The translations under genes were made by a program, and so were the position numbers. From IMG/VR virus record IMGVR_UViG_3300018080_000120: DNA of 64,000 nucleotides; one strand, written 5' to 3'. The DNA is from a virus (taxonomy: Duplodnaviria; Heunggongvirae; Uroviricota; Caudoviricetes). Shown in pieces: positions 12,605 to 63,235 of the stretch (within the stretch, counting starts at the first letter, position 1; each line of letters opens with the position of its first letter). The notes beneath the pieces were generated by a model. That model did not search any database, was not told the origin of the DNA, and worked only from the letters and a program-made list of their open reading frames with translations.

Positions 12605-12626
12605 CCCACCCCGCGGCGATCTACGG
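12605..12626 (+). promoter_or_regulatory. family-1 upstream element E11, degenerate (CCCACCCCGCGGCGATCTACGG)
   Basis: left arm intact, right arm mutated. Confidence 0.5.
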
Positions 12627-12642
12627 AGAGGAGGCAAAAGAT

Positions 12643-41019: not shown

Positions 41020-41023
41020 TATT

Positions 41024-41412: not shown

Positions 41413-42355
41413 GAATACTTACAATAGAAAGTTCATAGATAAGTTTATCTATTTGTATCCACAACTTCTTAAGGCACATTATGTGATCTATGAGAAGCTA
41501 CATGGTAGTAATGTACAAATTATCGTTCCCAGTAATGGAGATTTTCAGTTAGGTAAGCGCCACAGTCTAATTGAACCCAATGAAAACTTTTATGGTATAT
41601 GGGATACTATAAAACGTTATTCTCAGCCTATAAACAAAATCTCTGAATATGTGAAGAGATGTGGTTATTCCTATATGAATTACTACTGCGAGTATTTTGG
41701 TGGCGATGGTGAAAGAGAGCCAAGGATCCAAAAAGGAGTAATTTACAACCCTCTACAACAGATTAGATTTTTCGCTGTGGCGATTGAGGGTAGACTTCAG
41801 CCGCCCATAGTTCTTGAAGATATTTTTGACCATTTAGGGCTGAAAGAATTGTTAGTACCAAAAATAGGTATAATAGAAGGCTTGGATGCTGCTTTACATA
41901 TAGATGTAAATATGACTACTTTAATTAATCCTTACATTGAGGATAACTTTTTGGAAGGTGTGGTCATCCAGCCTCATACCAGAACTTTCGTAGATAAAAC
42001 TGGTAAACGTTTCCTTCTGAAGAAAAAACATCCGAAGTTTGAAGAAAGGGGAAAAAGGAAGAAATCAAAGCCAGTAGTTAATGATTTAGACGAAAAGATC
42101 ATTGGTCGGCTTCATGAGATATTTCTTGGATATCTAAATGAAAATAGGCTGCAAGGAACATTTTCTAAGGTCGGAGAAATTCAGGACAAATCCGAGATGA
42201 GCAAGTACATCGAATTTACGATAAAAGATGCCATCAAAGATTTTGAAAAAGATTTCGGCGATGAAATGGATGAAGCTGGGTATAGCCGCTTAGAAAGGAA
42301 GCGTATCTACAAAGGGGCAGGAGTTATTGTGGAAATGCTTAAGCAATATTTATAG
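41387..42355 (+). CDS. ATP-dependent RNA ligase (Rnl2-like)
   Basis: EKLHGSNVQI = ligase motif I (KxHGxN as in T4 Rnl2 KIHGTN); NFLEGVVIQP (motif IV), FLLKKKHPKF (motif V). Confidence 0.7.
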   Translation: MFRKYPEIENTYNRKFIDKFIYLYPQLLKAHYVIYEKLHGSNVQIIVPSNGDFQLGKRHSLIEPNENFYGIWDTIKRYSQPINKISEYVKRCGYSYMNYYCEYFGGDGEREPRIQKGVIYNPLQQIRFFAVAIEGRLQPPIVLEDIFDHLGLKELLVPKIGIIEGLDAALHIDVNMTTLINPYIEDNFLEGVVIQPHTRTFVDKTGKRFLLKKKHPKFEERGKRKKSKPVVNDLDEKIIGRLHEIFLGYLNENRLQGTFSKVGEIQDKSEMSKYIEFTIKDAIKDFEKDFGDEMDEAGYSRLERKRIYKGAGVIVEMLKQYL

Positions 42356-42364
42356 GAGAGAACA

Positions 42365-42655
42365 ATGAAAAGAGCAGAAAAATCAATTCCAAGATTTAGT
42401 GGTACATTGTGGAAAACAAAGATATTTTTCAAAGCATTTTGGAAACATATTATTACGGGTATATTAATACTTCTATTTTTTCTGTGGACACTTGTGAGCA
42501 TTGTTCATAGCATTTCGTCTATTAATAGACAAGATGTCATCGATGGCTCAGCCCGAGCTGTGGTAAAAACTGAAAAATTCTTTGAAGATCTAAAAACAAA
42601 AGTAGATGAATTAAGAAAGGAGAAAAACGATGCAGATAAAAACTATGGGAAGTAG
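42365..42655 (+). CDS. membrane protein
   Basis: TM helix ITGILILLFFLWTLVSIV. Confidence 0.5.
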   Translation: MKRAEKSIPRFSGTLWKTKIFFKAFWKHIITGILILLFFLWTLVSIVHSISSINRQDVIDGSARAVVKTEKFFEDLKTKVDELRKEKNDADKNYGK

Positions 42656-43259
42656 AAGTAAAATGGCGATACTGTGCATATCATACCTGGTATTAATTCT
42701 GACCATTTCGCTCAATTTAGGATGTGCAGGCATGCAATATCAGGCTCCGCAATTGACCACAAAGTCTTGTTCGGAGCTATTTTCGTGGGTAAAGAGTGTC
42801 ATGCCACCGGTTTTCGACGAGGGTTTTGATGAAGTTCCTGAGGTTTACATAGTAAGCCGTGACGAGATAAGAGAAAGGATGGCCGATGCAATAGACAGTG
42901 ATCCGCTGTTCAAAAAGTGGGTAGAAAAATATGGTCGCAAAAGTGCAGAAGAAATGCGCGCTGCTACAATCGAAAACGTCGTCACTCTCTGTCATATGAC
43001 AACATTGAAAATATATGTGGTTGATGGCTTAAGTCCATGCCAAACTGAAACCCAAATTGCCTATGGAATGGCTTACTATCTCATGGTTTCCAAGTATGGA
43101 AGAGGAGATGATTTGTCTTTTGGCCAAGCTTTGATGAGACGGATGTATTATGGAAGAATATCCACCATCATAAAGATGGCTTATTTTCGAACTTTTTGTG
43201 TGAAAGTGGAGACTTCTAAGGAGCCTTCGAAAGAAGCGGGAGAAGGCGATTACATATAA
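42630..43259 (+). CDS. lipoprotein/secreted protein
   Basis: signal MAILCISYLVLILTISLNLGC. Confidence 0.5.
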   Translation: MQIKTMGSRSKMAILCISYLVLILTISLNLGCAGMQYQAPQLTTKSCSELFSWVKSVMPPVFDEGFDEVPEVYIVSRDEIRERMADAIDSDPLFKKWVEKYGRKSAEEMRAATIENVVTLCHMTTLKIYVVDGLSPCQTETQIAYGMAYYLMVSKYGRGDDLSFGQALMRRMYYGRISTIIKMAYFRTFCVKVETSKEPSKEAGEGDYI

Positions 43260-43459
43260 TGGTTGTTTGCGCAAAATGCCACAAAAGGGATTTGTTTACC
43301 ACGCAATGTAAAAGACCTTTAGAAAATCATTCAATTATGATAGCTCCATCGAAATTGGCTGATGGGTGCGACATGTGTGGAAAAAAAGGCAAACTTTACA
43401 TATGTTTGGAATATAACAAAATAAAAAGAGAAACAAATGAAAACATTTATTGCTCATAG
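43259..43459 (+). CDS. zinc-ribbon protein
   Basis: CAKCH...CDMCG. Confidence 0.45.
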   Translation: MVVCAKCHKRDLFTTQCKRPLENHSIMIAPSKLADGCDMCGKKGKLYICLEYNKIKRETNENIYCS

Positions 43460-43468
43460 GAGATCAAT

Positions 43469-44782
43469 GTGTTTGTAATACCGCCCGGATTACTTATAAA
43501 TAGTAATGTAAATGACATAATATTGCCACTAGATTATTTTGGCATACATCTTGAGGATTTCATTGCCAAGCCTATTAAAGTCTGGATGAATAGAGCTCTT
43601 GATATCGAACCGGAATGTTTTGGACAATTAATGAACCTGGCAAATCTGCCGTTCATTCATTCTCATGTATCTCAGATGGCTGATGGTCATAAGGGATATG
43701 GTATGTCTATTGGCGGTGTAATTGCCACAAAAGATGTGATAATTCCTAACGCAGTAGGAAAAGACGTTGGGTGTGGTATGTTGGCTTTCATGTTGACTAA
43801 TCTAACTTTAGATGATATTATGCCCCGAAGAGAAGACATTGTTGCAGAAATTCTCAAAAAGATCCCGGTTGGTTTTGATCACAGAAAGAATCCTTTCCGA
43901 ATGAAAGGATACATCATGACCAAAATAAAGAAGGAGATATTAGAGAGAAGCGCAATAAATGGTATCGGCCATCCCAAAAAGCCTGAGCCTCCTGTTTTTG
44001 GAAAGGAAAAGGAAAGAATAGAATATCAAACTGCAACCCTTGGCGGAGGGAATCATTTTATTGAAATTCAGAAAGACGAAGAAGGCCATCCCTGGATAAT
44101 GATTCATTCAGGAAGTCGTAATTTTGGCTCCAGAGTATGTGGTTATTACGACAAAATTGCCGCAGATATAAATGATAAATACTATTCTCAAGTGCCAAGA
44201 AAATGGGAGCTTGCATTCATACCGAGAGAAGATCCTTTGTTCAATTATTATTGGTATGACATGCAATGTGCTTTGTATTTTGCCTATCTAAATAGGTTAT
44301 ATATGCATTTTGTGATTGTGGAAGATGTATTACCTGCCATATTCGGCAAAAGGACAGGATATACTGCACCTATTAATATCCATCATAACTATGCGTCTCT
44401 TGAAAATCACTTCGGGAAAAATGTGTTCGTCCACCGGAAAGGTGCGACCCAAGCAAAGAAAGGACAAACTTGCATAATACCTGGATCAATGGGTACAAAT
44501 AGTTATATTGGAAAAGGTTTGGGGAACAAAGATTCATTCGAATCTTGTTCTCATGGATCTGGTAGGGCTCTTCCTCGCAATAAGGCTTTGAAGAAGTTTA
44601 CCAAAGAACAAGTTCTTGCTTATTACAAAGAAAGAGATATTGTGCTGGGTGTTAAGGATCTTGAAAAGATCGCAGCTGAATGTGATTGGGCTTACAAAGA
44701 TATCAAGGACGTAATGAAAAATCAGGAAGACCTTGTAAAAATTGTCCATGAACTGACACCAGTTGCAGTCGTCAAGGGATAA
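43469..44782 (+). CDS. rtcB: RtcB-family RNA ligase
   Basis: IPGSMGTNSYIGKG, CSHGSGR, VFVHRKGAT, GGGNHFIE match RtcB conserved motifs. Confidence 0.85.
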   Translation: MFVIPPGLLINSNVNDIILPLDYFGIHLEDFIAKPIKVWMNRALDIEPECFGQLMNLANLPFIHSHVSQMADGHKGYGMSIGGVIATKDVIIPNAVGKDVGCGMLAFMLTNLTLDDIMPRREDIVAEILKKIPVGFDHRKNPFRMKGYIMTKIKKEILERSAINGIGHPKKPEPPVFGKEKERIEYQTATLGGGNHFIEIQKDEEGHPWIMIHSGSRNFGSRVCGYYDKIAADINDKYYSQVPRKWELAFIPREDPLFNYYWYDMQCALYFAYLNRLYMHFVIVEDVLPAIFGKRTGYTAPINIHHNYASLENHFGKNVFVHRKGATQAKKGQTCIIPGSMGTNSYIGKGLGNKDSFESCSHGSGRALPRNKALKKFTKEQVLAYYKERDIVLGVKDLEKIAAECDWAYKDIKDVMKNQEDLVKIVHELTPVAVVKG

Positions 44783-45832: not shown

Positions 45833-47122
45833 GTGATGAATTTCGGAAACTTAAACAGAAAGTTATTAAGGAAGGTTTGGGAAAGGGAGATGGAATTTGC
45901 TATGTTAGGAGGAGACCCTGAGTTCTTTGTTGCAAATAAAAAGGGCAAAATTCTTCCAGCGGACAAATTTCTTCCAAGTAAATATAAACCTTACAAGGTA
46001 AATGCGATAAGTGATTCAAAAGACAAAGAATGGCAAAAGAATCGCATTTATTTTGATGGCATTCAAGCCGAAATGGCGGTAGCGCCATGTACTTGTAGAG
46101 AAGATTTGCTATCTAATTTCTATAATTGCTTGAGAGGGGCAGAAAGAAAGATTGGAACCAACCAGATAATTCTGAAGCCTTCGGTTAAAGTTGATTTCAA
46201 AACCATCGAAGAGGCTGACCCCGAAGCGAGGATATTTGGGTGTGACCCTGATTTTAATGCGTATACCCTTACTCAGAATACTCCAGAAATGGATGCTTCT
46301 CGTCATCCATATCGATATGCTGGCGGGCACATTCATCTTGGTATAATTAAAAACTATCTTGAAGAGATCCCAGAAAATCAACGCGTGATAGCAATGGAGC
46401 CTGAAGGGCATATTCGTCTCGTGAAGTTCCTGGATGTTATGGTTGGTATTCCTGCTTTGTTGCTTGATAATGTACCTGGATCAAAGAGGAGAAGATCAAA
46501 ATACGGTAAGGCTGGTTGTTTCAGACCAACACCATACGGTATAGAATATAGAACTTTGAGCTGTTGGTGGCTTAAGTCGCCCATTACTGCGTCCTTAGTT
46601 TATGGCCTCGCAAGAATGGCATGGAGTCTGTGCATACAAAAGCTGGACGAAGAAGTAAGAGAAGCCGCAGGATGCGCTGAGGAGGATATCAGAGGAATTC
46701 TTGATTCTGGTGATGTAAAAGCTGCCACAAAATTGTGGGAAAATCATTTAGGTCCTCATATAGCTGGTATGTATAGTGAAAGTGAAAATCCCCTGCATAT
46801 AGGAGCATTCACTTCTCCCGATTATGCTTATTTGGACCCCAAATGGGAACCGTTAAAAGGAAGTAGACCCAGTCTTCTAGCTGGTAGAGCGTTAGACCCA
46901 AAAGAGGATGGCCTTCCAGTCTTCACTCTTGCAGCTTTTGAATATATGAGGAAGAACGGAATTCACAGTGTCATAAATGAAGATGTCAAGACAGAATGGG
47001 ATATAGATCAGAGAAGAGCTTTAGAAGCTCCAAACAGCGGAATGGTTGAAGGCTTATATGAAAAGCTACGCTTTCATCCAGATTTCCATAAATTCCAAGA
47101 ATCTTTTCTTGGAGCATTTTAA
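45833..47122 (+). CDS. glutamine-synthetase-like amidoligase superfamily protein (paralog A)
   Basis: LGGDPEFF N-terminal metal-binding acidic motif, YAGGHIHLGI (HxH), shared with 62027 product (GCDPEFFL, FHIHFGLP, ELRP). Confidence 0.4.
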   Translation: MMNFGNLNRKLLRKVWEREMEFAMLGGDPEFFVANKKGKILPADKFLPSKYKPYKVNAISDSKDKEWQKNRIYFDGIQAEMAVAPCTCREDLLSNFYNCLRGAERKIGTNQIILKPSVKVDFKTIEEADPEARIFGCDPDFNAYTLTQNTPEMDASRHPYRYAGGHIHLGIIKNYLEEIPENQRVIAMEPEGHIRLVKFLDVMVGIPALLLDNVPGSKRRRSKYGKAGCFRPTPYGIEYRTLSCWWLKSPITASLVYGLARMAWSLCIQKLDEEVREAAGCAEEDIRGILDSGDVKAATKLWENHLGPHIAGMYSESENPLHIGAFTSPDYAYLDPKWEPLKGSRPSLLAGRALDPKEDGLPVFTLAAFEYMRKNGIHSVINEDVKTEWDIDQRRALEAPNSGMVEGLYEKLRFHPDFHKFQESFLGAF

Positions 47123-47140
47123 TTTCAGGGAGGATAAGAG

Positions 47141-47410
47141 ATGAAAAGAGTGATAGTAGGACTATTAACAAAAGGTCAGGTGCTCACGGTAGGAGAAACG
47201 GCTTATCAGGGCCTCGTAATAAAAACCATCCAATATCGGCAAAATGGGCAGGATAAAATAAATGTTGGTACTCCAGGATATCGTGTTGAGATGGCCGATG
47301 AAAACACTTCATTGAATTTGTTCGTGCCAGAAAGAGATACAGAAGGTGCTCTGTTTATTGAGGAGAAAACCAAAAAGGGGGATGAAGTGGAGGTAGCCAG
47401 TGCAGATTGA
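47141..47410 (+). CDS. hypothetical protein
   Basis: 89 aa. Confidence 0.5.
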   Translation: MKRVIVGLLTKGQVLTVGETAYQGLVIKTIQYRQNGQDKINVGTPGYRVEMADENTSLNLFVPERDTEGALFIEEKTKKGDEVEVASAD

Positions 47411-48155
47411 TAAAAAACACAATGTAGTTATTTTAAACAATGACTATTTATATGCAGGGCCGTTCGAAGATTCTGCGAATATCTCATTTCATATAGACGA
47501 TATTGTTCCTGGTAAAACAGACCTGGTTCTTTTTACAGGCGGCGCTGATGTCCATCCAATGCTCTACAAAGGAAGAGACTGTGGCATCTCAGCGACCAAT
47601 ATTGGAAGGGATGGTAAAGAAAGGCACATCTTTAACTTTTGTAAAAAGCATGGAATAAAAATGACCGGAATCTGTAGGGGATTTCAGTTCCTAAATGTAA
47701 TGTGCGGCGGGTTCATGTATCAGCATATAAATAATCATGGTGGCTGTTGCCATCCAGTGAAATTTCACGATGCAGAATTTATCGTGACTAGCACTCACCA
47801 TCAGTTGGTGGGTCTTGGAGAAGGATCTATTCCTATGGCATGGTCATCGGAACGAAGATCTAACGTGTATTATGGTCCTCAAGGAAATAAGGTTTCTCCG
47901 CCAGAAAGAGAGATGGAGGCTGCAATATTTCCTGAAGAAATGGCGATGGGTGTGCAGTACCATCCCGAGATGATGTATATCAATGAAGAAGGTAGAATAC
48001 ATTACGAAAAGATGATAAATGACTTTATCTGTTTAGAGATGAGTGATTTTGTCCAAAAATACACCAAAATCAATGGAGGAAAAAGATGGCTCCAAAAGAT
48101 ACGGAAGGCGATGTCAAGAACGAAGCCATTGAGGTTGTCTCAGAAGAGCAATTAA
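47400..48155 (+). CDS. class I glutamine amidotransferase-like / gamma-glutamyl hydrolase (peptidase C26, COG2071) protein
   Basis: GICRGFQFLNVMCGG (nucleophile Cys), VTSTHHQLV, GVQYHPE (His-Glu). Confidence 0.85.
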   Translation: MQIDKKHNVVILNNDYLYAGPFEDSANISFHIDDIVPGKTDLVLFTGGADVHPMLYKGRDCGISATNIGRDGKERHIFNFCKKHGIKMTGICRGFQFLNVMCGGFMYQHINNHGGCCHPVKFHDAEFIVTSTHHQLVGLGEGSIPMAWSSERRSNVYYGPQGNKVSPPEREMEAAIFPEEMAMGVQYHPEMMYINEEGRIHYEKMINDFICLEMSDFVQKYTKINGGKRWLQKIRKAMSRTKPLRLSQKSN

Positions 48156-50421: not shown

Positions 50422-50802
50422 ATGCCAGATAATGTAAAAGTAACGGCTAAGCGTGGTTATGGATGCTATGAAAAAACTACTGAAAGAACTGGCAGATTGA
50501 TAGGTCTTGCAAATGAAAAAGAATGCCGAGCAATAATAAACTTGAAAGACGGCGCAAGACGAGCATCTACTCATGGCAATAAATCAATAGATGATATCTA
50601 TGATGATCCACATATATATGAATCTCGATTTGTCTTGGTTTTTAGAGAAGCCGGGTTGCAAAAACTGTTTATTTCTCCAAAGATAAGATCAAAGATGAGT
50701 GATACACTTCAAAAAGGATTTATATGCTGTGATGACAGCCGATACGTATTCGAGATGATTGAAGAAAAGGAGAAAAAACAGGAGGAAAAATGTATTTTAT
50801 AA
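50422..50802 (+). CDS. hypothetical protein
   Basis: SD taggagattggaa. Confidence 0.5.
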   Translation: MPDNVKVTAKRGYGCYEKTTERTGRLIGLANEKECRAIINLKDGARRASTHGNKSIDDIYDDPHIYESRFVLVFREAGLQKLFISPKIRSKMSDTLQKGFICCDDSRYVFEMIEEKEKKQEEKCIL

Positions 50803-51935
50803 AACCTCTCCAGAAAATTGAAGTGGTGGAAAGCGATAAAATATGTAAGCCTGGGAGTATCGGATATATTGCTGCTATCGATGTTGGAGTTCGATTCAAT
50901 ACTAACAGACTTTCGATAGTATTCACTCGATTCGGAAAAGGCGGAAAGAACCGGCTGTCTAACATAAGTTTGGTTCAAAACATTCTGGATGTAAGTTTTA
51001 TTGAGGATGAAGGGCTGCAGAATTCTTTGAAAGTGTGCATACAAGGATATGGCCCTGTAAGAAAGGCCTCCATTGTAAAACCAATACCACATTCCAAAAA
51101 CCTATTGACTATGGATACGTGGGATTTCATGGGATATATTTCAGCTTTTTCTATATTGCTCGATAAAATGAAGTATAGAAGAAATATAGACGGACATTTC
51201 CATGGCCCGACTTATTTTCATGGTGGTAAACTGGTAGAAGAGAGAATGGAAGACATACCCATAGAATTTCTTGGATATGCTTTATGTGGCAAAATGGGTA
51301 GACCGCCTCTGAATACCTTTCTGTATAACTATTTCAAGACAAAAAAGCATCGTCAGTGGTGGCTGGAAAAAATGTATAAATACTATGCCATGAATTTAAG
51401 AGCTCACGTCATTGACAAAATGCGAATTCTTAAAAATACGTTCACCAAGACTAGATTACAATTCAGCGATTGTTTGGGTCTAAAAGCATCTCAATTTATT
51501 AAGCTGGACCCACATTTTGAAATAAAAGGTATGAATGATTTGGCATTTTATAATTTCAAAACACCACCATTGAACAGGGTTCCAACGCCAAGGCCTCAGC
51601 CTGGGAGACGGGCCTATCCAAGAGTGCGGCAGGCTCAAAATCAAGGCTTTATCACTGTTAATATGGAACCCCAACAACTCGGATATGCTTTCGAAAATGG
51701 TCCGGTAGAGGCTCATCCAGCTGAAAATGCTATTCAGGAAGAAGTCCCATCTGTACTTCCAGTCAATCCTCAAATTGTGATAGATGGAATCGATGTTGAA
51801 CTTGTAAGACAGCTTCCATCCCGGCCAAGAAATGGAGATAGATTTAATATAACAGACGTGGAAGGTACTCGACGTACGTATGTATATGACATGGCAATGA
51901 GAGCATACATAAAAACCAGGCCAATCGGAGAATAA
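50790..51935 (+). CDS. hypothetical protein sharing N-terminal domain with next gene; candidate RNAP-associated
   Basis: IEVVESDKICKPGSIGYIAAID vs next gene IIVVESSVSKNGHPNVGDIGYLD. Confidence 0.5.
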   Translation: MYFIKPLQKIEVVESDKICKPGSIGYIAAIDVGVRFNTNRLSIVFTRFGKGGKNRLSNISLVQNILDVSFIEDEGLQNSLKVCIQGYGPVRKASIVKPIPHSKNLLTMDTWDFMGYISAFSILLDKMKYRRNIDGHFHGPTYFHGGKLVEERMEDIPIEFLGYALCGKMGRPPLNTFLYNYFKTKKHRQWWLEKMYKYYAMNLRAHVIDKMRILKNTFTKTRLQFSDCLGLKASQFIKLDPHFEIKGMNDLAFYNFKTPPLNRVPTPRPQPGRRAYPRVRQAQNQGFITVNMEPQQLGYAFENGPVEAHPAENAIQEEVPSVLPVNPQIVIDGIDVELVRQLPSRPRNGDRFNITDVEGTRRTYVYDMAMRAYIKTRPIGE

Positions 51936-51947: not shown

Positions 51948-53063
51948 ATGATTCAGCGAGGAAAAAGAATAATAGTCGTTGAAAGCTCTGTCTCAAAGAA
52001 CGGGCATCCTAATGTCGGCGATATTGGTTATTTGGATAATGCTTATTTATTTCCTAAACAGAGATTTATTTTAGCAGATGCTTTCTTTTATCAATACAAG
52101 AAAGATGCTACGAAATCTAAAACCCGGCTTGAGAAGAAAGTGTTTATAATAGATCTCAATATGAACAAATCTCTAAAGAATAAAATCCAGAAATCAGGCA
52201 TTTCTAAAAAATATTTTTCAGACAATAATAATGTCATTAACTTAACCGCAGTGGGATTTGATCCACACAGCGAGTTCCATGACACTTCTCCTCAGATATT
52301 TGATCACTGTGGTTTATGGACCTCTTCAAATTTAAATCCTGTAAAAATTCCTTTTGTCCATATTGCAGATGCAAATTGTATAACTTTACAAAGGGAAAAA
52401 ATTTCTGAAATAGATAAAATCAGTGCTTGGTTTGCTTGTTTCGAAGAGGTGTTTCGCAAATCTCGTCGTACAATGATATCTAAAGAAGCACATAATGTTG
52501 TGTCTTCTTGTATAGAAAAACATGTAAAAAAAGTTCACAACAGTAAAGGCGTTATAAAATATACTGTAAACAAAATATCTCCCGTAAGAATAGCCCTTGA
52601 AAGTTCTAGAAGCTTTGTGAAAAGTGTTAGATTTTTGGAAATTATTCTTGACATGGAATTCGAGAGGTACAGAAAATCAATTTTTAATTGGCCAAGAGAG
52701 AACGATCTGAGTAAATTGGCCATAGTATGGAATAAATCGTCTATATTTGAAACTAATAGAATAAGCAATGTAATATTCTATGATATAAGTATATCAGAGG
52801 CCGCAATTGCAATTAAAGTTCTCCGGTTTTCATTATTTCGTGCCCTTTTCGTATCACCAAATACATATAGAGCTTTTAGCCCTTTCGAAAATTTTCTTAT
52901 AATTAACAATCAGTTAAGCCTTTTTAAATCACACGCAGACTTTGCGATATTTTGCGAATTCTGTGATAAAGTTAAGTCGTCTGCTAATCAGAGCAGTGCG
53001 GCTCTTACCCGTATTCTCGATAGGTTGGCCGAACTTGAATCGAAAAGGTCCAACTCGAAGTAA
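51948..53063 (+). CDS. hypothetical protein (paralogous N-terminus to 50790 product); candidate RNAP-associated
   Basis: 371-aa ORF immediately upstream of RNAP gene. Confidence 0.5.
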   Translation: MIQRGKRIIVVESSVSKNGHPNVGDIGYLDNAYLFPKQRFILADAFFYQYKKDATKSKTRLEKKVFIIDLNMNKSLKNKIQKSGISKKYFSDNNNVINLTAVGFDPHSEFHDTSPQIFDHCGLWTSSNLNPVKIPFVHIADANCITLQREKISEIDKISAWFACFEEVFRKSRRTMISKEAHNVVSSCIEKHVKKVHNSKGVIKYTVNKISPVRIALESSRSFVKSVRFLEIILDMEFERYRKSIFNWPRENDLSKLAIVWNKSSIFETNRISNVIFYDISISEAAIAIKVLRFSLFRALFVSPNTYRAFSPFENFLIINNQLSLFKSHADFAIFCEFCDKVKSSANQSSAALTRILDRLAELESKRSNSK

Positions 53064-53090
53064 CCTCAAAATCTAAATAAGGAGGCGAAG

Positions 53091-56000
53091 TTGGGAGAAA
53101 ACATTCAAGGCAGGACAGAGAGTTTGGTTAATGACATAAAATGTGAATTTAACCGACAAAAGGAATATCTTAAGTCCAATGCTGAAATGGATCTTCAAGT
53201 CGCTGATGATCTGCTGAAGATAACTTTTAGCGACGGTAATATCTCTCAAACTCTTTCTATTCCTCTTCCTACTATAAATGAGAAAGGACTTAATCTCCTA
53301 AACAATAACGATGTAACCAGAGTGATGTGTGATTATTGGTTGGAGAGAGAACAAAAACGCTTGAATTATCACGATGTTATCCGAGTGATATTGTGTGGTG
53401 AAATAAATGAAGTAATGCCACATAGGTCAAGTATGGGATCTCTTCTGAGTCGAGTAATAAAAGCATTTAGTCAGAACGCAGTACCATATATGGTCAATTC
53501 TATTCAGCGACTCGTCAGTGAAATTGTCAACGTAATGCCGCTTCATGAAACGGACATGAATAGTTGGGCAATGAATCATCGATTGATAATTATAGACCCA
53601 TTATTTAACGCCCTAACTGATCCAAATGACAGGCTTGAATATCAAGTCGAAAAGAACAAAAAGTATTATAAAAAGTTTGGATGGAGTACAATCGGCCTAT
53701 CTGAAGGAGTCTTGTCCGATAAAAACTTCATTCTAACAACTGATCTTAGAAAACTGACTCCATATGGATGGTATCATAATCCGCAGAGAAATCTTTATTC
53801 CACTCTTGGAATGAAAGGTGATGAGCTTCCAAAAGTAAGATCTCGATCTGAACACGAGCTCATCAAAAGAGGTATTCAACGAAAAGGATGGAATCTTGTC
53901 ACTGCAATAATTGACACTCCATTGGTATTTGAAGACCAAATTCTGGTTGACAAAAGACATGCTGGTCTTTTTCATACTGTGGAAAAAAGATTTGTCGTTT
54001 ATGGCGATAAAATAATGATTAAAAAGGGCGACAAAATTTCTACAGACGGCGTTCTCGGGATATCTAATGACAATGAAAAAGTTCGGATGACATTGAAATG
54101 CGATGAAGCTGAAATTACAGATGTCAAGAAAGAACTGGCAAATGTCGGCGGCGAAGAAGTGGTAACGACTGTTATTAAGGTCAAAGGTAAAAGATATTTC
54201 CGGGATGGCACCAAGTTTTCCAATCTTCATGGAAATAAAGGAATTGTTCGTATGGTAGATCTCGGTTATGCAATAGACCCGAGAGATGGAAAGAAAGTCC
54301 CGATTGATGTTATGATTTCTGCCACATCCATTAACAAAAGAGCCAACTTCGGTCAAATACTGGAAGCTCTGTCCAGCAATCTTATTCCTGAGGATGCAGA
54401 GTATTTGATAATAGAAGATGATCATCAAACTAATAGAACAAAAGTGGAAAATGCTCTGGAAACTGCTGGATTTCCAAAAGATGGTACGTGGATGATTGAT
54501 ACTTATTGCGGTGAACATTCTGCAATAGTTGGCAAAATGTTTTGGGGAGTGACCAAAGATCCAGAAGACCAATTGTGGGAGGGTAATCGAACTCTTGTTA
54601 CAGATAATCGAGAATTGAGAACTTCTGGGCTCAAATTTAGCCATGTTGAATTTAAGGCTCTTACGACTCGGTTTGGCCCTCAAAACGCTGTCACTAAAGA
54701 AATACTTTCGCATGCTCAAGGCATGGAAGTTCTTCACGATGAGATAAAGATTTTGAAATCTGCTCATGGAGAACTGCCAGACAACCTTCCTGAAATAGAT
54801 GCTTCTAATGTGGATTTTGTAGATAATAGCAAAGGGATATTTCACACCGCGACGGAAGTTGCTGGAACAGTTGTGGATGAGAGCTTCATGCCTGATGGAT
54901 TCATTCTTAAATTACCTTGTGATTTTCAGGCAATTGTGAATAAAAAGAACCCTGACCATTTCACTTGTGGAATGCCTCAGGAAATAATTGACCCTGAAGA
55001 AAAGAATGTATATCAATATAATAAAATATTTATACCAAATGCTTTGCTTCGTAGATGTTGGAGGCATCCATCTGGTAAATGGGGACTGAGTGTAACGGGG
55101 TCCCTTATAAATCGAATTATAGAATGGTGCCATCGATTCAAAGCAAGCGGTGATGTAAATGACCAAGTGGTCTTAATGAGAGTAATTGCCAGCTATTTTC
55201 GCAATATTGCAAAAATGATGGGGTCCAAAACTGGCGAATTGAGTACTTATGGAATGGCCGTCCGATATCCTTATTCTACTCGAGCAACTGCTGCACTATC
55301 TGATAATTTGCCAAGAGACACAATCGAAATTCATAGGGACATGGCGAACCTATTGAAGGTTAAGACTGGTGATATAGTCATAGCTGAAAGATTTCCCTGT
55401 CTTGGATTTATGTCCATTCGACCACAGTTTGTTAGAGTAACAGACGATCCGCAATGCAAATATGTGATAAGAGTGAGTGGAAATAGTCTGGTATCCATGA
55501 ATCTGGATTTTGATGGAGATACTCTATTTCTCGCAAGTCTTCATACTCCACAAGCAAAAGAAGCGATGCGAAAGGAATTGACTAATTCGAATACATTGTG
55601 CAAACAAGTAATCGAACAAATGAATGCAAAGAAAGTGCCTCAAACAAAGGAAATGAATCTGGATGGCTTCGAAATTCGAGTCTTTCCGCCGCCAACTAAT
55701 GAAGAACATGCTCAAATAGTGAGAAATGCGACTGGTGTGAAAAGCCATACCGGGCCGGTTATCGCACTTGCTTATAATCTCATGCGGATAGTAGAAAGAA
55801 ATGTGCCTTATTCTGATAATACTCAGCATGTTAATCTTGAGGTTCTTCTTGACTTCCTTGGTAATACTGTTTTTAAACAGAAACATGGTATTAAATCCTT
55901 GCAGGAAGAGGCAACAGATGCCATATGCTTGGCCGATGCGGAAAGAATGGTTGAGCTGGGATTTGAAAGAAGCCCAAGTGAATTATTGTGCAGATTGATT

Positions 56001-56390
56001 AAAGAAGAAGCGAAGTCGATTGGAGTAAAGGACCTAAAATGGTATTATAAAACAGCAAAGGAAAGAGGCTGGAGTAAGATAATAAATCTTATCGTCAGAA
56101 AGAAGAATAAAGTATACTTTGCTACTCGATCTACTCTCGGCCCCTTTAATCTGCTGGAGCATCTAAAAGTAGGTCCCGCTGATTTGCCAAGTTTTATGTT
56201 GAGTTTGATTCTAAGAAAAGAGACAGAAGATATCGAAGAAAAGCTCAATCTAAGGAAATTCGAAAGAGCGGAAAAGCATCGAGAAGCTGTGCTTTCTGCA
56301 TTCAAGGGCGTCTATAGAATAATGTCGGACTATATTGATAATATGATGACGCCTAAACCACAAGCAATGAGCGGCTCTTGCTCGGCCTAG
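53091..56390 (+). CDS. single-polypeptide two-barrel DNA-dependent RNA polymerase (fused beta-like and beta-prime-like catalytic modules; TTG start)
   Basis: beta-type: KFSNLHGNKGIVRMV and PIDVMISATSINKRANFGQILEAL (cf. GRHGNKGV...[22 protein letters not shown]); beta-prime-type: ERFPCLGFMSIRPQ and MNLDFDGDTLFLASLHT (cf. NADFDGDQM); SD aaggagg. Confidence 0.8.
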   Translation: MGENIQGRTESLVNDIKCEFNRQKEYLKSNAEMDLQVADDLLKITFSDGNISQTLSIPLPTINEKGLNLLNNNDVTRVMCDYWLEREQKRLNYHDVIRVILCGEINEVMPHRSSMGSLLSRVIKAFSQNAVPYMVNSIQRLVSEIVNVMPLHETDMNSWAMNHRLIIIDPLFNALTDPNDRLEYQVEKNKKYYKKFGWSTIGLSEGVLSDKNFILTTDLRKLTPYGWYHNPQRNLYSTLGMKGDELPKVRSRSEHELIKRGIQRKGWNLVTAIIDTPLVFEDQILVDKRHAGLFHTVEKRFVVYGDKIMIKKGDKISTDGVLGISNDNEKVRMTLKCDEAEITDVKKELANVGGEEVVTTVIKVKGKRYFRDGTKFSNLHGNKGIVRMVDLGYAIDPRDGKKVPIDVMISATSINKRANFGQILEALSSNLIPEDAEYLIIEDDHQTNRTKVENALETAGFPKDGTWMIDTYCGEHSAIVGKMFWGVTKDPEDQLWEGNRTLVTDNRELRTSGLKFSHVEFKALTTRFGPQNAVTKEILSHAQGMEVLHDEIKILKSAHGELPDNLPEIDASNVDFVDNSKGIFHTATEVAGTVVDESFMPDGFILKLPCDFQAIVNKKNPDHFTCGMPQEIIDPEEKNVYQYNKIFIPNALLRRCWRHPSGKWGLSVTGSLINRIIEWCHRFKASGDVNDQVVLMRVIASYFRNIAKMMGSKTGELSTYGMAVRYPYSTRATAALSDNLPRDTIEIHRDMANLLKVKTGDIVIAERFPCLGFMSIRPQFVRVTDDPQCKYVIRVSGNSLVSMNLDFDGDTLFLASLHTPQAKEAMRKELTNSNTLCKQVIEQMNAKKVPQTKEMNLDGFEIRVFPPPTNEEHAQIVRNATGVKSHTGPVIALAYNLMRIVERNVPYSDNTQHVNLEVLLDFLGNTVFKQKHGIKSLQEEATDAICLADAERMVELGFERSPSELLCRLIKEEAKSIGVKDLKWYYKTAKERGWSKIINLIVRKKNKVYFATRSTLGPFNLLEHLKVGPADLPSFMLSLILRKETEDIEEKLNLRKFERAEKHREAVLSAFKGVYRIMSDYIDNMMTPKPQAMSGSCSA

Positions 56391-56432: not shown

Positions 56433-56798
56433 ATGTTAGACTATAGTAAGAGCGTATTCGTAGGAAAGGTAGATAATGCTCCACAAATTAATCAAAATGC
56501 CCAGGGCAGGAAACAAGCATTTTTTCATCTGATAGTTAACAACCGGGTGAGAGATGCTAATGGAAACTGGGTAGATAAATTTGTCAAAGCGCCTATTTAT
56601 GCCACGGATAAAAAGGCCGATATCATTGAGCAATATGTTGTAAAAGGACATCAATTGCTTATCGAAGCGAGATATCAAAGTTGGGAGGCAAATGGTCAAA
56701 TGCAGCACGCTTTTGAGTTGTTAGGCGTGACTTTGGGATATAAGCCCAAGCAAGACAATGCAGGGGGACAGCCTCCTAAAGATGATATTCCGTTCTAA
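56433..56798 (+). CDS. ssb: single-stranded DNA-binding protein
   Basis: OB-fold pattern VFVGKVDNAPQI...QAFFHLIVNNRVRD...YVVKGHQLLIEARYQSWEANGQ and canonical acidic C-terminal tail DDIPF. Confidence 0.85.
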   Translation: MLDYSKSVFVGKVDNAPQINQNAQGRKQAFFHLIVNNRVRDANGNWVDKFVKAPIYATDKKADIIEQYVVKGHQLLIEARYQSWEANGQMQHAFELLGVTLGYKPKQDNAGGQPPKDDIPF

Positions 56799-56832: not shown

Positions 56833-56869
56833 GGGGGTGTGGATATTCTCTGCACCCCCGAATTTTTTT
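56833..56869 (+). terminator. rho-independent terminator
   Basis: GGGGGTG...CACCCCC stem then GAATTTTTTT. Confidence 0.7.
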
Positions 56870-56881: not shown

Positions 56882-57460
56882 ATGAAAATAATGAAAACTT
56901 ATAAAGTTCAATCCAGTCGCAATTTATTTCTTACTGGAGATGAGCACTATTTCCATAAACTAATACTTCGTTTAAGACAATTTTCCACAATGGAAGAGAT
57001 GAATGAGACTCTTATATCGAATAACAACGAAGTGGTTAGAGATAAGGATCTTGTAGTTCATCACGGAGATTTCTCTTTAGGAACCGTGAAGCAGACTGAA
57101 GAAATATTAAGACGACTGAAAGGCCACCATATCATAATTCCTGGCGATCATGATGCTATTCTGGGACAACTAAACAAGAGTGGATTATTTGAATTGCGCT
57201 CTCCAATCTTTAAGATGCAGAGAGATGATATCCAACTAATCGGCTGCCATTATTGCTTAAGAACGTGGCCAAGATCGCATTATAACAGCTGGCATACTTT
57301 TGCCCATTCTCATGGCAGATTATTGCCAGTTGGTAAATCACATGATGTGGGAGTCGATAATAATTATTTCCGACCGATTTCTTTTGCTCAGTTGATCGAG
57401 ATAATGGAGAAAAGATTGGACAACGAAAATTTTATAAAGCAGGAGGATCGAAAAAGATGA
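56882..57460 (+). CDS. calcineurin-like metallophosphoesterase
   Basis: LTGDEHYFH, VVHHGDFS, IIIPGDHD resemble phosphoesterase motifs I-III; start after terminator. Confidence 0.5.
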   Translation: MKIMKTYKVQSSRNLFLTGDEHYFHKLILRLRQFSTMEEMNETLISNNNEVVRDKDLVVHHGDFSLGTVKQTEEILRRLKGHHIIIPGDHDAILGQLNKSGLFELRSPIFKMQRDDIQLIGCHYCLRTWPRSHYNSWHTFAHSHGRLLPVGKSHDVGVDNNYFRPISFAQLIEIMEKRLDNENFIKQEDRKR

Positions 57461-57954
57461 GTAATGCTCAGCAAAAAGCGTATGTTGAAAAAGGAATAGG
57501 CAAAGACCGTTGTGTTGCACTGGGTGAAGATATTGAATTGGCTGATGCTGAAGCAGCTGAAATAATACCAGCGCCTGATAAAGTCCCAACACTTGAAGAA
57601 AGAGTCGCTAATTTGGAACAAATGTTATCCCATCTCACCCTATCGCTTGATAGTCTTTATGAAATGTTCAAGCCAATTCGAAACCGCTTGCAAGGCAAAG
57701 TTGATCATGCAGTCAATAATAAGTTTCGAGAGGTAAAATCTGAAAACAAGATTCCCGAAGGAACAATATTGACAGGTAAATCAAAAGGTTTGTCATATTA
57801 TCTAACGGTAAGAGATGGCGGATTCTATATTGGTGATGTGAAACATGGAAGTTTATCAGCCGCCGCAGAAAAAGTGAGCGGTGTAAGAAGAAGCGGTTTA
57901 ACATTTTGGCATTTTACAGATGGCAAAACAGTGAAAGAAAAGTTTTCAGAATAA
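57457..57954 (+). CDS. hypothetical protein
   Basis: 165 aa. Confidence 0.5.
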   Translation: MSNAQQKAYVEKGIGKDRCVALGEDIELADAEAAEIIPAPDKVPTLEERVANLEQMLSHLTLSLDSLYEMFKPIRNRLQGKVDHAVNNKFREVKSENKIPEGTILTGKSKGLSYYLTVRDGGFYIGDVKHGSLSAAAEKVSGVRRSGLTFWHFTDGKTVKEKFSE

Positions 57955-57967: not shown

Positions 57968-58666
57968 ATGGGTAAATCTCACGAAGAATGTGGAGACGCT
58001 TTAACAAATCTATTTTTAAAGAGGGTTTGTAAGCTATGTGGAATATGCGAAGCTCCGGATAATCCAGAGTTCTGTACTTTGTTCTGTCATGCCGATTGTA
58101 TGAAGTTTTTCAAAGATATTGTAGTAACCGCTGCCATGCTAAAAAGGTCTGATCCTGAAAAATTCGAAAGAATTCGTAGTTTTGAGGGATTTTGCGCCTT
58201 GCATTGTAAAATATGTCCTTTTCGAGGGCCAGATTGTTCTGGACTAAGACAAAGGGTTGAATGCTATCAACATTTCCTTGAACAGTCATCGACGGTTGAT
58301 GTGGGCGAAGAAATAGATAAAGCTAGATTGTATGAAAAGTGGAGCGGCATCGATCTGGACACGATTCCTAAATTGGAAAAGGATGCAAATGCAGTGTCCA
58401 AAAACGCCAGAAAGAGAATAACCAAAAAAGCAAAAAATGCCAAAAAAGACGCAACAACAATAATAGAAGGGATAAGAAAAGGAAAGAATAAAAAACACAA
58501 GCCTAAAGTAAAAAATAGAGGTAAAAAGAAAGATATATCAACAACATTCTTTTACAATGAAGAAGATGAAGGATGGAAAGAGTTGATAAATAAATATTTG
58601 GAGATCACCACACCGAATGAGGATAATAATAGACAATCGGATAAAACTGCTGGATCTACCACCTGA
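57968..58666 (+). CDS. Cys-rich protein with K-rich basic tail
   Basis: multiple CxxC pairs then KKAKNAKKD...KNKKHKPKVKNRGKKK. Confidence 0.5.
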   Translation: MGKSHEECGDALTNLFLKRVCKLCGICEAPDNPEFCTLFCHADCMKFFKDIVVTAAMLKRSDPEKFERIRSFEGFCALHCKICPFRGPDCSGLRQRVECYQHFLEQSSTVDVGEEIDKARLYEKWSGIDLDTIPKLEKDANAVSKNARKRITKKAKNAKKDATTIIEGIRKGKNKKHKPKVKNRGKKKDISTTFFYNEEDEGWKELINKYLEITTPNEDNNRQSDKTAGSTT

Positions 58667-60020
58667 AATAAATGAATGGTTAATCAACGAACTGACTTTT
58701 AGCAATCCAAAATACGAAGAAGCAGTAAAATATGGCCGATATACGAGAAATATTCCAGAATTTCTAAAATTATATTCAAAAACGCCGAATGGTCTGTTCG
58801 TTCCCCGTGGATTTTTGCAAAAAATCGAAAAAAGGTTATTTGGAAAAGGGCATAATATTGAAATCGTTGATAGTCGAGTATTAAACGATCCAATAGACGT
58901 AGATTCTCTTATTAGTTTGCGTCCATACCAAGAACCAGCAAAATATGATTTATTGGAAAATCCGAATGGTATGCTCATCGCTCCTGCCGGATCTGGCAAA
59001 ACAGTTCTCGGATTAGATGTTTTTGCGACTCTCCGCCAAAAGCTGTTGTGGCTGACCCATACAAAAAGATTAGCTGGACAAGTGATAGACCGAATTTTAG
59101 GTTCTGAAGAAAATCCTCCGCTTTTGGGCAATATCACCAAAGACGACATAGGAATGCTCGGAAGTGGTAAATGGAAAATTGGCAACAAAGCGACAATAGG
59201 AATAATTCAGACTTTAGTACGTAGATTGGAAATGTTGCCAGAAATTGGTCGAGAATTCGGATTAGTCATAGTCGATGAAGCACACCATGTTCCAGCAAGC
59301 ACCTTTTTGAAGGTTTTAGGTTATTTTTCCGCTTATCACTTATATGGATTGACAGCTACTCCATATCGCCGAGACAAACTTGAGAACATCATGTTTGCTA
59401 CCCTTGGCGGTAAAAACGCGGAAATTCAAAGATATTCAGTCAAAAAGGAAAAAGGAATAATCACTCCAAAAGTGATCGTAAAGGAAGTCCCCGCACCAAT
59501 TCACGAAGGTAATGATTTCCAATATATCCTTCGAGAGTTGTTGATACCAAATGAACACCGGCTTCTTTTAATAGGAATAGACGTTATAAATGAAGCTCAT
59601 GCCGGAAATTGCTGTATCGTGATAAGTCTGCGAAAAGAGTATTGCGAAATGCTCCATGACATAATAAAAAGAGCATGGGACAAAACTGGCATTGCAACAG
59701 GCGATTATTCCGACAAACATAATAATGCCCAGGTGGAAAAACTGGAAAATGGGGAAATAACAGTTTTAGTAACAACTTTCGAATTGCTTGGTGAAGGGTT
59801 TGACGTTAAAAAGTTAAATCGCGGATTTCTCGCTCTACCGTTCAGAGAGAAAACAAGGGTGGAGCAGGCGGTTGGCCGAATTCAGAGAACTTGCCCTGGT
59901 AAGAAAGATGCGTTTATCTACGATTATGTCGATTCAAATATCGGAATTTTAAAGAATCAATTCCGTCATAGAGCCTATACCTACAAAAAGTTGGGTATGG
60001 AAATAATAGTAGGGGGATAG
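58617..60020 (+). CDS. superfamily-2 DEAH-box helicase
   Basis: LIAPAGSGKT (Walker A), VIVDEAHH (DEAH), GLTATPYRRD (motif III), QAVGRIQR (motif VI). Confidence 0.8.
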   Translation: MRIIIDNRIKLLDLPPEINEWLINELTFSNPKYEEAVKYGRYTRNIPEFLKLYSKTPNGLFVPRGFLQKIEKRLFGKGHNIEIVDSRVLNDPIDVDSLISLRPYQEPAKYDLLENPNGMLIAPAGSGKTVLGLDVFATLRQKLLWLTHTKRLAGQVIDRILGSEENPPLLGNITKDDIGMLGSGKWKIGNKATIGIIQTLVRRLEMLPEIGREFGLVIVDEAHHVPASTFLKVLGYFSAYHLYGLTATPYRRDKLENIMFATLGGKNAEIQRYSVKKEKGIITPKVIVKEVPAPIHEGNDFQYILRELLIPNEHRLLLIGIDVINEAHAGNCCIVISLRKEYCEMLHDIIKRAWDKTGIATGDYSDKHNNAQVEKLENGEITVLVTTFELLGEGFDVKKLNRGFLALPFREKTRVEQAVGRIQRTCPGKKDAFIYDYVDSNIGILKNQFRHRAYTYKKLGMEIIVGG

Positions 60021-62026: not shown

Positions 62027-63235
62027 ATGAAGCTTAAAATTAAGGCATCGAAACTGATGTCTAAGAATAAATCTGTCTTGGGATCAATGGAAGATAGGTT
62101 GATTCGTATTCCAGCAGGTCTAAGAGAAGAATTAAATATCAGAACAGGATCTTTTTTGAGACTGAAACAAAAGGGTGGTAGAGAAGCGGTTTTACAGGTT
62201 ATGATTTCTTATCTCGAAGATGCGCTTGAAGATGAAATGCAGGCTTATGTAAGTAAGGACACACATAATTTATTAAAGCTGTCCAAAATAAGTCTGGTAG
62301 ATCCAGCTGATGATATTTTAGTTGGGTGTGACCCCGAATTCTTTTTAGTTGACCTAAAGACAGGTAGAACCCGACCTGCATCCCATTTCTTTCCATATGT
62401 AGGAAAGTTGGGGAGTGATTGTGGTTTGGCAGAACTTCGACCAAGACCAGCTTATTATGAAAAAGATTTAACAGCAAATCTATTAGAGTTAATGGATAAA
62501 GCTTACAAACGTATAGCTGATAGAGTTCTGTATCGAAAAGAAGATCTTGCAATGATAGCTGCATCGCACTTGAATGAAGCATCAGCAGGATTTCATATTC
62601 ATTTTGGTCTGCCCTCAATATTATTAGATGAATCGGATATATCAGGTAAGTTACTGAAAAATATGTCTTATATATTAGATTATTATGTAGGCATTCCGGC
62701 AATTATGCCTGAAGGATCAGAGGACTGTAGAAGAAGGGTATCTGGTTATAGTCAGTATGGAAAACCAGGCGATGTAAGAGCAGATCGCATAACATTGGAA
62801 TATAGAGTTCCCGGCGGACATTTGCTAAGACATCCAGTTCTAACTGCTGGTTTATTAGGTATAGGTGTAGTTGTAATGAAAGATATGCTGAGTCGGATAA
62901 AATTATATTCAAATGAATATAGAAACAAAAATATATTCTATGAATATGACCAGTTAAGAGATTTATATCCTAATTTACCAGATCGGGTGGAGATTTACAA
63001 AAGCATAGTGTCTCCAGATACAAAAAACGCAATTCGTCATTTGGATAATATAGTTGATGATTTATCTAAAATGATAGGATTTTCTGAAAACTCAGAAGCC
63101 GTCTTGAATTATTTTAAATATGTATTATCTTATATAAGAGGAGAGAAAAAGTTCGGCGGCAATTTAGCAATCAATTGGAGGTTATTTGATGAGAAACAAC
63201 CGGAACAAGTGGCGTTTTTACAATCCGCCTTCTAA
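62027..63235 (+). CDS. glutamine-synthetase-like amidoligase superfamily protein (paralog B)
   Basis: VGCDPEFFLVD, AELRPRP, AGFHIHFGLP; paralog of 45833 product. Confidence 0.4.
   Translation: MKLKIKASKLMSKNKSVLGSMEDRLIRIPAGLREELNIRTGSFLRLKQKGGREAVLQVMISYLEDALEDEMQAYVSKDTHNLLKLSKISLVDPADDILVGCDPEFFLVDLKTGRTRPASHFFPYVGKLGSDCGLAELRPRPAYYEKDLTANLLELMDKAYKRIADRVLYRKEDLAMIAASHLNEASAGFHIHFGLPSILLDESDISGKLLKNMSYILDYYVGIPAIMPEGSEDCRRRVSGYSQYGKPGDVRADRITLEYRVPGGHLLRHPVLTAGLLGIGVVVMKDMLSRIKLYSNEYRNKNIFYEYDQLRDLYPNLPDRVEIYKSIVSPDTKNAIRHLDNIVDDLSKMIGFSENSEAVLNYFKYVLSYIRGEKKFGGNLAINWRLFDEKQPEQVAFLQSAF

Follow-up and report, generated by a model that had tools for sequence, protein, structure and literature searches.

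Within a 64,000-nt stretch of DNA from a tailed virus (Caudoviricetes; IMG/VR record IMGVR_UViG_3300018080_000120), which we call the window, we analysed the gene at positions 53091..56390 of the + strand. The gene encodes a 1099-aa protein in which a beta-type and a beta-prime-type double-psi beta-barrel (DPBB) of RNA polymerase (RNAP) are joined in one chain. The protein falls in the multisubunit-type clade as a trimmed beta then beta-prime fusion, and is neither YonO-like nor crAss-like. We consider it likely that the gene specifies an active DNA-dependent RNAP of the two-barrel superfamily, a ~125-kDa fusion of trimmed beta and beta-prime modules that is non-virion and serves middle/late transcription.

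Both catalytic barrels are encoded by one open reading frame

The first-pass annotation of the window had described one 1099-aa open reading frame (ORF) carrying a beta signature and then a beta-prime signature. The ORF was found exactly so, uninterrupted and with a TTG start, and the quoted motifs were in their right places on the chain: GTKFSNLHGNKG at residues 373-384, KRANFGQILEAL at 416-427, ERFPCLGFMSIRPQ at 766-779 and NLDFDGD at 804-810. The features of the gene are as follows.

53091..56390, + strand: putative single-chain two-barrel RNAP gene, 1099 aa, beta-like part N-terminal and beta-prime-like part C-terminal
53080..53085, + strand: Shine-Dalgarno AGGAGG, 5 nt before the polymerase TTG, read directly from the sequence
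53886..54560, + strand: beta-type DPBB region, residues ~266-490 (Rpb2_6, hhalign to RpoB, invariant columns, AlphaFold2 strand pattern)
53952..54206, + strand: beta-rich insert inside the beta barrel, residues ~288-372, candidate minimal flap/SBHM (sandwich-barrel hybrid motif) domain
54207..54242, + strand: GTKFSNLHGNKG with active-site lysines K375 and K383 (hhalign to K1065/K1073, invariant in 49 relatives)
54561..54635, + strand: linker or junction of the two polymerase halves, residues ~491-515 (dip in model confidence and split relatives)
55254..55580, + strand: beta-prime-type DPBB, residues ~722-830, with ERFPCLGF and the catalytic loop
55500..55520, + strand: NLDFDGD, Mg-binding Asp triad D806, D808 and D810 (invariant in 49 relatives)
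55698..55802, + strand: long helix 870-904 with the invariant TGVKSHTGPVIALAYNLMR, candidate bridge helix
55818..55928, + strand: helix-loop-helix 910-946 (predicted helices 910-932 and 938-946) with invariant Q930, K931, H932 and G933, candidate trigger loop

Two Pfam RNAP models matched the protein above their curated cut-offs, in the order beta and then beta-prime. RNA_pol_Rpb2_6 (beta barrel) covered residues 331-476 (E 1.6e-9, 37.9 bits, cut-off 23.4), and RNA_pol_Rpb1_2 (beta-prime barrel) covered residues 742-826 (E 3.1e-6, 28.0 bits, cut-off 25.3). When the family profile was compared with E. coli RpoB by hhalign (E 6.7e-6, RpoB 1047-1120 covered), GTK375FSNLHGNK383G was aligned on GDK1065MAGRHGNK1073G, with active-site lysines in both. 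Searches of the PDB with the single protein or the family profile returned only RNAP beta/B chains and, weakly, Rpb1/A'. The NCBIfam matches were confined to rpoB, rpoB_arch and A', far under the cut-offs (TIGR02013, 28 bits vs 801; NF006336 (A'), 19 bits vs 819), and the RpoB/RpoC equivalog cut-offs were not passed. The first-pass description of the enzyme as far from canonical RpoB/RpoC is therefore borne out. In PHROGs the matches were marginal, to two phage RNAP subunit families with one barrel each (phrog_2987, E 8.3e-6; phrog_3295, E 7.4e-4). The beta-prime half is assigned on the Pfam, PHROG and fold evidence.

Conservation was determined in an alignment of 49 relatives with 44-82% identity to the window protein. 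The residues E281, D282, K375, N382, K383, G384, R417, N419, Q422 and E425 of the beta-like half were invariant, as were R767, P769, D806, D808, G809 and D810 of the beta-prime-like half. The catalytic Asp triad and the DPBB lysines, which the first-pass annotation had singled out for alignment, were thus without exception conserved. The long stretch T881-R899 and QKHG at 930-933 were invariant as well. E281 and D282 belong to an invariant FEDQI motif within the beta-type barrel region and probably correspond to the 'ED' motif of beta. NLDFDGD was the sole D[FYHW]D[GTA]D motif among all ORFs of the window, and a scan of the ORFs for this motif revealed no second RNAP-like ORF in the 64 kb.

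The predicted fold resembles RNA polymerase large subunits

The AlphaFold2 (AF2) model of the polymerase was confident, with a predicted local distance difference test (pLDDT) score of 86.9 and a predicted template-modelling score (pTM) of 0.81. Its overall fold matches solved RNAP large subunits, and the top 50 Foldseek hits in the PDB were all beta/Rpb2 (RNAP second-largest subunit) chains. Single-chain two-barrel enzymes scored lower, with both halves alignable at once: QDE-1 12.0, RDR2 10.2, P74-26 gp62 9.9, P23-45 gp96 9.2 and crAss gp66 8.5; PolD DP2 scored 7.4 in the same comparison. In both sequence and structure, beta/beta-prime chains are nearer to the polymerase than are the single-chain enzymes of the RNA-dependent RNA polymerase (RdRP) clade.

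In the model, the beta-rich insert sits where cell-type enzymes have the flap. After the beta-prime barrel, the residues with the highest conservation are in helix 870-904 (35 residues) and the helix-loop-helix 910-946. Judged from the model, helix 870-904 may be the bridge helix and 910-946 the trigger loop. Most of the beta lobes, most of the beta-prime clamp and the jaw are absent from the polymerase. Between the halves, at residues ~491-515, pLDDT falls to 70-75.

Two viral proteins were retrieved from BFVD by structure. The best whole-chain match was A0A8S5SD80 (Siphoviridae sp. ctnpt50, a gut siphovirus metagenome-assembled genome (MAG)), annotated as 'minor tail protein' (TMq 0.51, 1223 columns). 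The other, A0A172Q0S6 of Acinetobacter jumbo phage vB_AbaM_ME3, is an uncharacterised 798-aa protein (TMt 0.48). Both are 10-13% identical to the window polymerase and may be unrecognised single-chain two-barrel polymerases. These matches suggest that other unrecognised single-chain forms exist.

The polymerase belongs to a family of large uncultured phages

A protein database search found at least 432 relatives of the polymerase. Among the best 120 of these, most were 1080-1220 aa and a few were 712-1036 aa, at 45-100% identity. More than 100 relatives at 45-82% identity were full-length. A profile search of 1.84 billion cluster representatives gave 471 matches at E <= 1e-3, of which 71 reached E <= 1e-30. 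Some two dozen near-full-length 50%-identity cluster representatives were found, followed by a sharp score drop to other RNAP families. The relatives come from IMG/VR viral contigs of 45-238 kb, one contig of 264 kb and contigs that binning assigned to unrelated MAGs. Independent assemblies contain the ORF in the same continuous form; an ENA contig of 85 kb has the identical gene, and a contig of 124 kb is also recorded. The carrier is a lineage of large to jumbo uncultured phages.

By tblastn at E 1e-5, no homologue was detected among GenBank phages. In the sequence sources, no family member bears a name beyond 'hypothetical protein'. Koonin and co-workers reportedly catalogued 23 two-barrel families; in a comparison that excludes this published catalogue, we found no description, name or model of the family in the literature, Pfam, PHROGs or NCBIfam.

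Some relatives are split. Contig L019 (1-2356) carries a beta-like ORF followed by a beta-prime-like ORF that lies in another frame and starts 14 nt before the stop of the first. The break is homologous to residues ~495-515 of the window polymerase, and P0205, an unrelated beta-like protein of 506 aa, ends at the homologous position. As sequences, L019 and the pair P0205/P0198 suggest a genuine two-subunit (split) sister form, although a frameshift in L019 is also possible. One cluster member is split into 280 + 789 aa on a single contig.

These split members are what could be cited for the view that the fused frame is an artefact, namely two genes that a frameshift in sequencing or assembly has merged, or a pseudogene in decay. 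We regard this as having practically no chance of being right. The first-pass annotation had itself named such a frameshift as what would undo its reading, and the many full-length relatives rule it out. Since a full-length family with invariant catalytic residues exists, continuous in independent assemblies and among more than 100 relatives and about two dozen cluster representatives, a frameshift cannot account for the fused frame, and selection acts on the active site.

Two other metagenomic chains, P0239 (1403 aa) and P0237 (2278 aa), contain Rpb2_6 and then Rpb1 domains. P0239 matches Rpb2_6 much more strongly (171 bits). The two chains indicate that further beta–beta-prime fusion families exist.

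Two genes upstream of the polymerase share an N-terminal domain

Two genes, up1 and up2, lie directly before the polymerase gene.

51948..53063, + strand: up1, 371 aa, fast-evolving orphan with a conserved N-domain of ~70-120 aa, candidate polymerase partner
50790..51935, + strand: up2, 381 aa, with the paralogous N-domain and, in relatives, an RRGKxGKxR-type basic loop, candidate polymerase partner

The first-pass annotation had proposed that the two proteins share an N-terminal domain. No similarity between them was seen by BLASTP (E 0.13). We collected the counterparts of up1 and up2 from eleven related loci and aligned each family. At the profile level the domain was upheld: hhalign related the two families with a probability of 94.6% (E 6.7e-8, 117 columns). 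The N-terminal pattern common to both is GTKhxV…GPxxGSxGYh…hhFxRaG…K.R. The N-domains are conserved, and the remainder of each protein is fast-evolving. A KOW-like reading of the N-terminal motif, made by eye, was dropped for want of support from any tool.

Both genes directly precede the polymerase gene in the window and in 14/14 loci with upstream sequence, whose polymerases are 40-46% identical to that of the window. They form part of a syntenic block of ~10 genes: amidotransferase, NUDIX-like gene, two small genes, up2, up1, polymerase, SSB, DUF2924 protein and helicase. Because the whole block is syntenic, adjacency is weak evidence of a functional link. The up1 and up2 families had no match in Pfam, NCBIfam or the PDB, including sigma factors and the AR9/phiKZ specificity subunits, and comparison of their profiles with the polymerase was negative. 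For up1, AF2 gave an unreliable model (pLDDT 51.8).

An extension of our reading, which we hold tentatively, is that the 1099-aa chain is the catalytic core of a small holoenzyme to which up1 and up2 dock via their shared N-domain. They might act as specificity factors at promoters, as sigma and AR9 gp226 do, or stand in for lobe or clamp modules that the chain lacks. The constant position beside the polymerase gene and the conserved, paralogous N-domains on otherwise fast-evolving proteins fit this idea. For at least two more up1 homologues, the longest contig equals that of a polymerase homologue in size (19108 and 32854 bp). The polymerase also lacks most of the beta lobes, the beta-prime clamp and the jaw, and no sigma-like gene was seen nearby. 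However, the synteny of ~10 genes may reflect shared ancestry only, up1 and up2 show no similarity to sigma, TFB, AR9 gp226, phiKZ gp68 or any solved chain, and they belong to no Pfam or NCBIfam family. A more speculative version, which we think improbable but worth stating, makes up1 and up2 a previously unknown class of initiation factor. Docking through the shared N-domain, with divergent C-terminal domains, would direct a self-contained minimal multisubunit-type enzyme to two promoter classes (e.g. middle and late), and the split form (L019, P0205/P0198) would be the two-subunit ancestor of the fusion. If true, this scheme would be a sigma-independent and TFB-independent solution for a cell-type polymerase.

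The polymerase gene lies in a metabolic and replication block

Every ORF of appreciable size in the window is on the + strand, and the GC content is ~38%. The polymerase gene is inside a gap-free, tightly packed run of metabolic and replication genes, with the following features downstream.

56433..56798, + strand: SSB gene directly downstream of the polymerase (Pfam SSB, E 1.6e-11), position kept in all loci
56833..56859, + strand: intrinsic-terminator-like hairpin, 11-bp stem (7 GC pairs) and T-run (consensus scan)

The strong terminator-like hairpin is intergenic, ahead of the next gene that was called in contig L014. As a predicted terminator, it probably closes the transcription unit that holds the polymerase gene. 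A scan for sigma-70-type promoters at 43-61 kb gave 52 sites vs 56 ± 7 by chance, which is no excess.

The gene just after the SSB gene, in every related locus, encodes a DUF2924 protein (57457-57954 in the window). An SF2 helicase gene (58617-60020), for which the best NCBIfam match was XPB (E 7e-20; Rad25), lies 2 kb downstream of the polymerase in all loci. In L005 and L008 the helicase has a large insertion (812-833 aa). A Rad25-like helicase has been linked to jumbo-phage RNAPs (Iyer et al., PMC7824862). As a transcription partner the window helicase was rejected: its homologues occur in more than 3000 phages, including T5-like and Bacillus siphophages with no recognised polymerase gene.

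Further from the polymerase, an RNA-repair set at 39225-44782 comprises an HD-domain protein of the CCA-adding enzyme/poly(A) polymerase family, a T4 Rnl2-type RNA ligase and RtcB; it may counter host cleavage of tRNA or other RNA. Adjacent genes for NadE and nicotinate phosphoribosyltransferase (NAPRTase) at 25120-27221 form an NAD salvage pair that may counter NAD-depleting host defences. Two phiEco32-type COOH-NH2 ligase genes and C26 glutamine amidotransferase/gamma-glutamyl hydrolase genes lie at 45833-48155 and 62027-63235. The same amidoligase/amidotransferase genes are found in L016 (5124-8392 and 16405-17499), and L016 and L017 carry a GGACT gene. Placed on either side of the polymerase block, in distant relatives as in the window, the ligase/amidotransferase genes form a conserved amidoligase system and are candidates for peptide modification. 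Other window genes encode a radical SAM protein, a patatin, and HD and NUDIX proteins; PHROG matches include HNH endonucleases, an endolysin/transglycosylase and a phosphoesterase. Positions 1-4000 have a GC content of 0.45-0.47 vs ~0.38 elsewhere, and the genes there include one like SSB (1847-2503) and one for a transglutaminase-like protease (3282-4034). This part may be a different module or an acquired segment.

Repeated hairpin elements precede small genes at the other end of the window

Ten hairpin copies of the form CCGCGG-CGAT-CCGCGG (TTYACCCCGCGG-CGAT-CCGCGG) occur at 5.3-12.7 kb of the window.

Copies 1-5: 5385-5411, 6233-6259, 6682-6708, 7526-7552, 7891-7917
Copies 6-10: 9677-9714, 11111-11157, 11932-11958, 12155-12181, 12605-12631

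Each hairpin abuts the 5' side of a Shine-Dalgarno sequence, which is followed by the start codon of a small, early-looking gene. Some copies show compensatory stem changes (CACGA/TCGTG, GCGCG/CGCGC), and several have a AGTATATAA-like box ~60 nt upstream. The element could act in the 5' untranslated region (5'-UTR) or in processing, or it could belong to an early promoter. Its position suggests an early-gene 5'-UTR RNA element more than a promoter for a later-made enzyme. These are the repeats from which the first-pass annotation expected the enzyme to transcribe. Because they cluster upstream of early-looking genes, a link of the polymerase to them is doubtful.

In the same region, a stretch of ~480 nt is duplicated (6255-6732 and 12178-12655; 72-83% identity, 5923 nt between the copies). 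The duplicated stretch covers a small gene and flanking hairpin elements.

Proposed role and alternative explanations

In our proposal, the beta module would consist of a fork-like region, a barrel into which a small flap-like element is inserted, and the pair of catalytic lysines. The beta-prime module would contribute the second barrel and its Asp triad, along with a helix resembling the bridge helix and a hairpin resembling the trigger loop. Template-directed RNA synthesis would take place at the interface of the barrels by the universal two-metal mechanism. D806, D808 and D810 would hold the Mg ions, and K375 and K383 would stabilise the nucleoside triphosphate (NTP) and the transition state. 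The polymerase gene, in its early/middle block of nucleotide, RNA-repair and replication genes, would be transcribed by the host polymerase after infection. The non-virion enzyme would then transcribe middle and/or late phage genes, with the host enzyme no longer needed. T7 RNAP is made by the host after infection in this way and then transcribes phage genes. We infer the non-virion role from the location of the gene in a metabolic/replication block that ends in a bacterial-type terminator. Non-virion polymerases of like behaviour are YonO (PMC5467207), P23-45 gp64 (PMC10770324) and the jumbo-phage phiKZ/AR9 non-virion RNAPs (PMC7598289).

Several points weigh against this proposal. The sequence signal of the beta-prime half is weak: the Rpb1_2 match is only slightly above its cut-off, the PDB profile matches for this part have E 0.01-0.09, and hhalign of the family profile with E. 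coli RpoC alone was not significant. No promoter was identified for the polymerase. The window is 64 kb of a genome of at least 124 kb, and a virion role or a second polymerase elsewhere is possible. The placement beside SSB and helicase genes also fits a priming role.

A polymerase packaged in the virion and injected with the DNA would transcribe the earliest genes, possibly from the hairpin elements at 5-13 kb. The crAss gp66, N4 and P23-45 gp96 virion polymerases are analogues. The 'minor tail protein' label of the best global viral structural match (TMq 0.51) recalls the tail-fused P23-45 enzyme, and the ten repeated elements do precede small early-looking genes. However, the gene is among metabolic/replication genes and not structural ones, additional domains for ejection or for a tail are absent from the 1099-aa chain, the transcription unit closes with an intrinsic terminator of bacterial type, and a hairpin that abuts the ribosome-binding site is a better fit to a 5'-UTR RNA element. 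We consider a virion enzyme unlikely. A replication primase, or primer-synthesising polymerase, is somewhat less likely still as an alternative to a phage transcriptase. The gene directly precedes that of SSB and is 2 kb from that of an SF2 DNA helicase, and no primase was recognised among the window ORFs scanned, although with 64 kb of the genome seen a primase may lie elsewhere. Priming by a two-barrel RNAP has been raised for primase-less jumbo phages (Iyer et al. 2021, PMC7824862). Against this, the protein appears to keep processivity elements (flap-like insert, bridge helix and trigger-loop-like hairpin). To our knowledge, no two-barrel RNAP acts mainly as a primase.

The first-pass annotation was right about two barrels and the catalytic residues in one chain, but its choice of YonO and crAss gp66 as the nearest kin did not hold. 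A divergent single-subunit polymerase of the YonO or crAss type, from the RdRP-related clade, would share the single chain, the two barrels and a size near that of YonO (839 aa). However, hhalign of the family profile with YonO (yonO from SPBc2) gave a probability of 0.07% (E 0.72), and the tblastn search of GenBank phages, SPbeta included, gave no match to YonO or other homologue. As a control, YonO passes no Pfam RNAP model, whereas the window polymerase passes two. The model also contains a beta-rich insert at the flap position, and YonO and RdRP-type enzymes are reported to have no such insert in the beta barrel (Iyer et al. 2021, PMC7824862). YonO is reported to have no homology to multisubunit RNAPs beyond a few catalytic residues and no trigger loop (PMC5467207). 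We thus give the YonO/crAss assignment very little credence and retain the trimmed beta–beta-prime fusion.

Significance and comparison with known polymerases

Phage-encoded single-chain two-barrel polymerases are an established concept. What appears to be new, from sequence comparison and modelling, is that large uncultured phages have a polymerase family of cell-type beta–beta-prime fusions, possibly with a dedicated pair of partner proteins, and with a split sister form. The single-chain two-barrel enzymes studied so far (YonO, crAss gp66, P23-45 gp64/gp96, QDE-1) are of a clade so divergent that they tell little about the workings of cell-type polymerases. Within ~125 kDa, the phage family appears to combine a cell-type beta barrel and its small flap with a bridge helix and an element like the trigger loop, and it offers many natural variants in addition to the split form. 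If active, the enzyme would be a tractable minimal model of what a multisubunit-type active centre needs, could reveal promoter recognition without sigma, and would add one more example to the repeated joining and separation of the two catalytic subunits. As an enzyme for in vitro transcription, it would be a new candidate too.

YonO of the Bacillus prophage SPbeta (PMC5467207) is likewise a single-chain two-barrel phage RNAP of ~100 kDa, non-virion and serving late genes. It differs in having no detectable profile similarity to the window polymerase, no Pfam RNAP match, a reported lack of trigger-loop homology and of the flap insert, and a place in the RdRP-related clade; the window polymerase seems to have a trigger-loop-like hairpin with invariant QKHG. 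The crAss-like phi14:2 gp66, QDE-1 and P23-45 gp64/gp96 are single-chain two-barrel enzymes too, with solved structures. The gp66 type is a ~2200-aa virion protein with a QDE-1-like fold, to which the window polymerase does not conform.

The jumbo-phage non-virion RNAPs of phiKZ and AR9 consist of 4-5 polypeptides of more than 2500 aa in total, with a specificity subunit (gp68/gp226). In those enzymes beta and beta-prime are each split, whereas here and in more than 100 relatives one continuous ORF of about 1100 codons (1099 aa in the window) encodes the enzyme; in sequence the resemblance is marginal (E 8e-6 and 7e-4). The same barrels and catalytic residues are present in RpoB/RpoC, in natural RpoB-RpoC fusions and in the mReC phage RNAPs (PMC7481178), and the order beta then beta-prime is that of bacterial rpoBC operons and fusions. 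Cellular RpoB/RpoC total ~2700 aa vs ~1100 aa; the window polymerase lacks the lobes, most of the clamp and the jaw, and no alpha/omega partners are evident.

The closest in layout is the RNAP of yeast cytoplasmic linear plasmids (killer plasmids, or virus-like elements (VLE)), K2ORF6p + K2ORF7p (PMC6211774), as compared by its published description (domain order and size). It is likewise multisubunit-type, with beta and then beta-prime regions in a chain of ~1000 aa, shortened spacers and most of the clamp gone. It differs in belonging to a eukaryotic cytoplasmic plasmid, in its stated relationship to the enzymes of poxviruses and nucleocytoplasmic large DNA viruses (NCLDV), and in working with a capping enzyme. 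Its C-terminal beta-prime regions form a subunit of their own (132 aa), whereas in the window polymerase the parts resembling the bridge helix and trigger loop are in the same chain, and no small beta-prime-like ORF was noticed beside its gene. The 2018 authors called the VLE beta–beta-prime fusion unique (PMC6211774). Chaban et al. include 'some derivatives with fused DPBB domains' in the multisubunit clade (PMC10770324), and Koonin et al. describe beta–beta-prime fusions as recurrent (PMC7281927). The VLE and phage fusions are probably independent.

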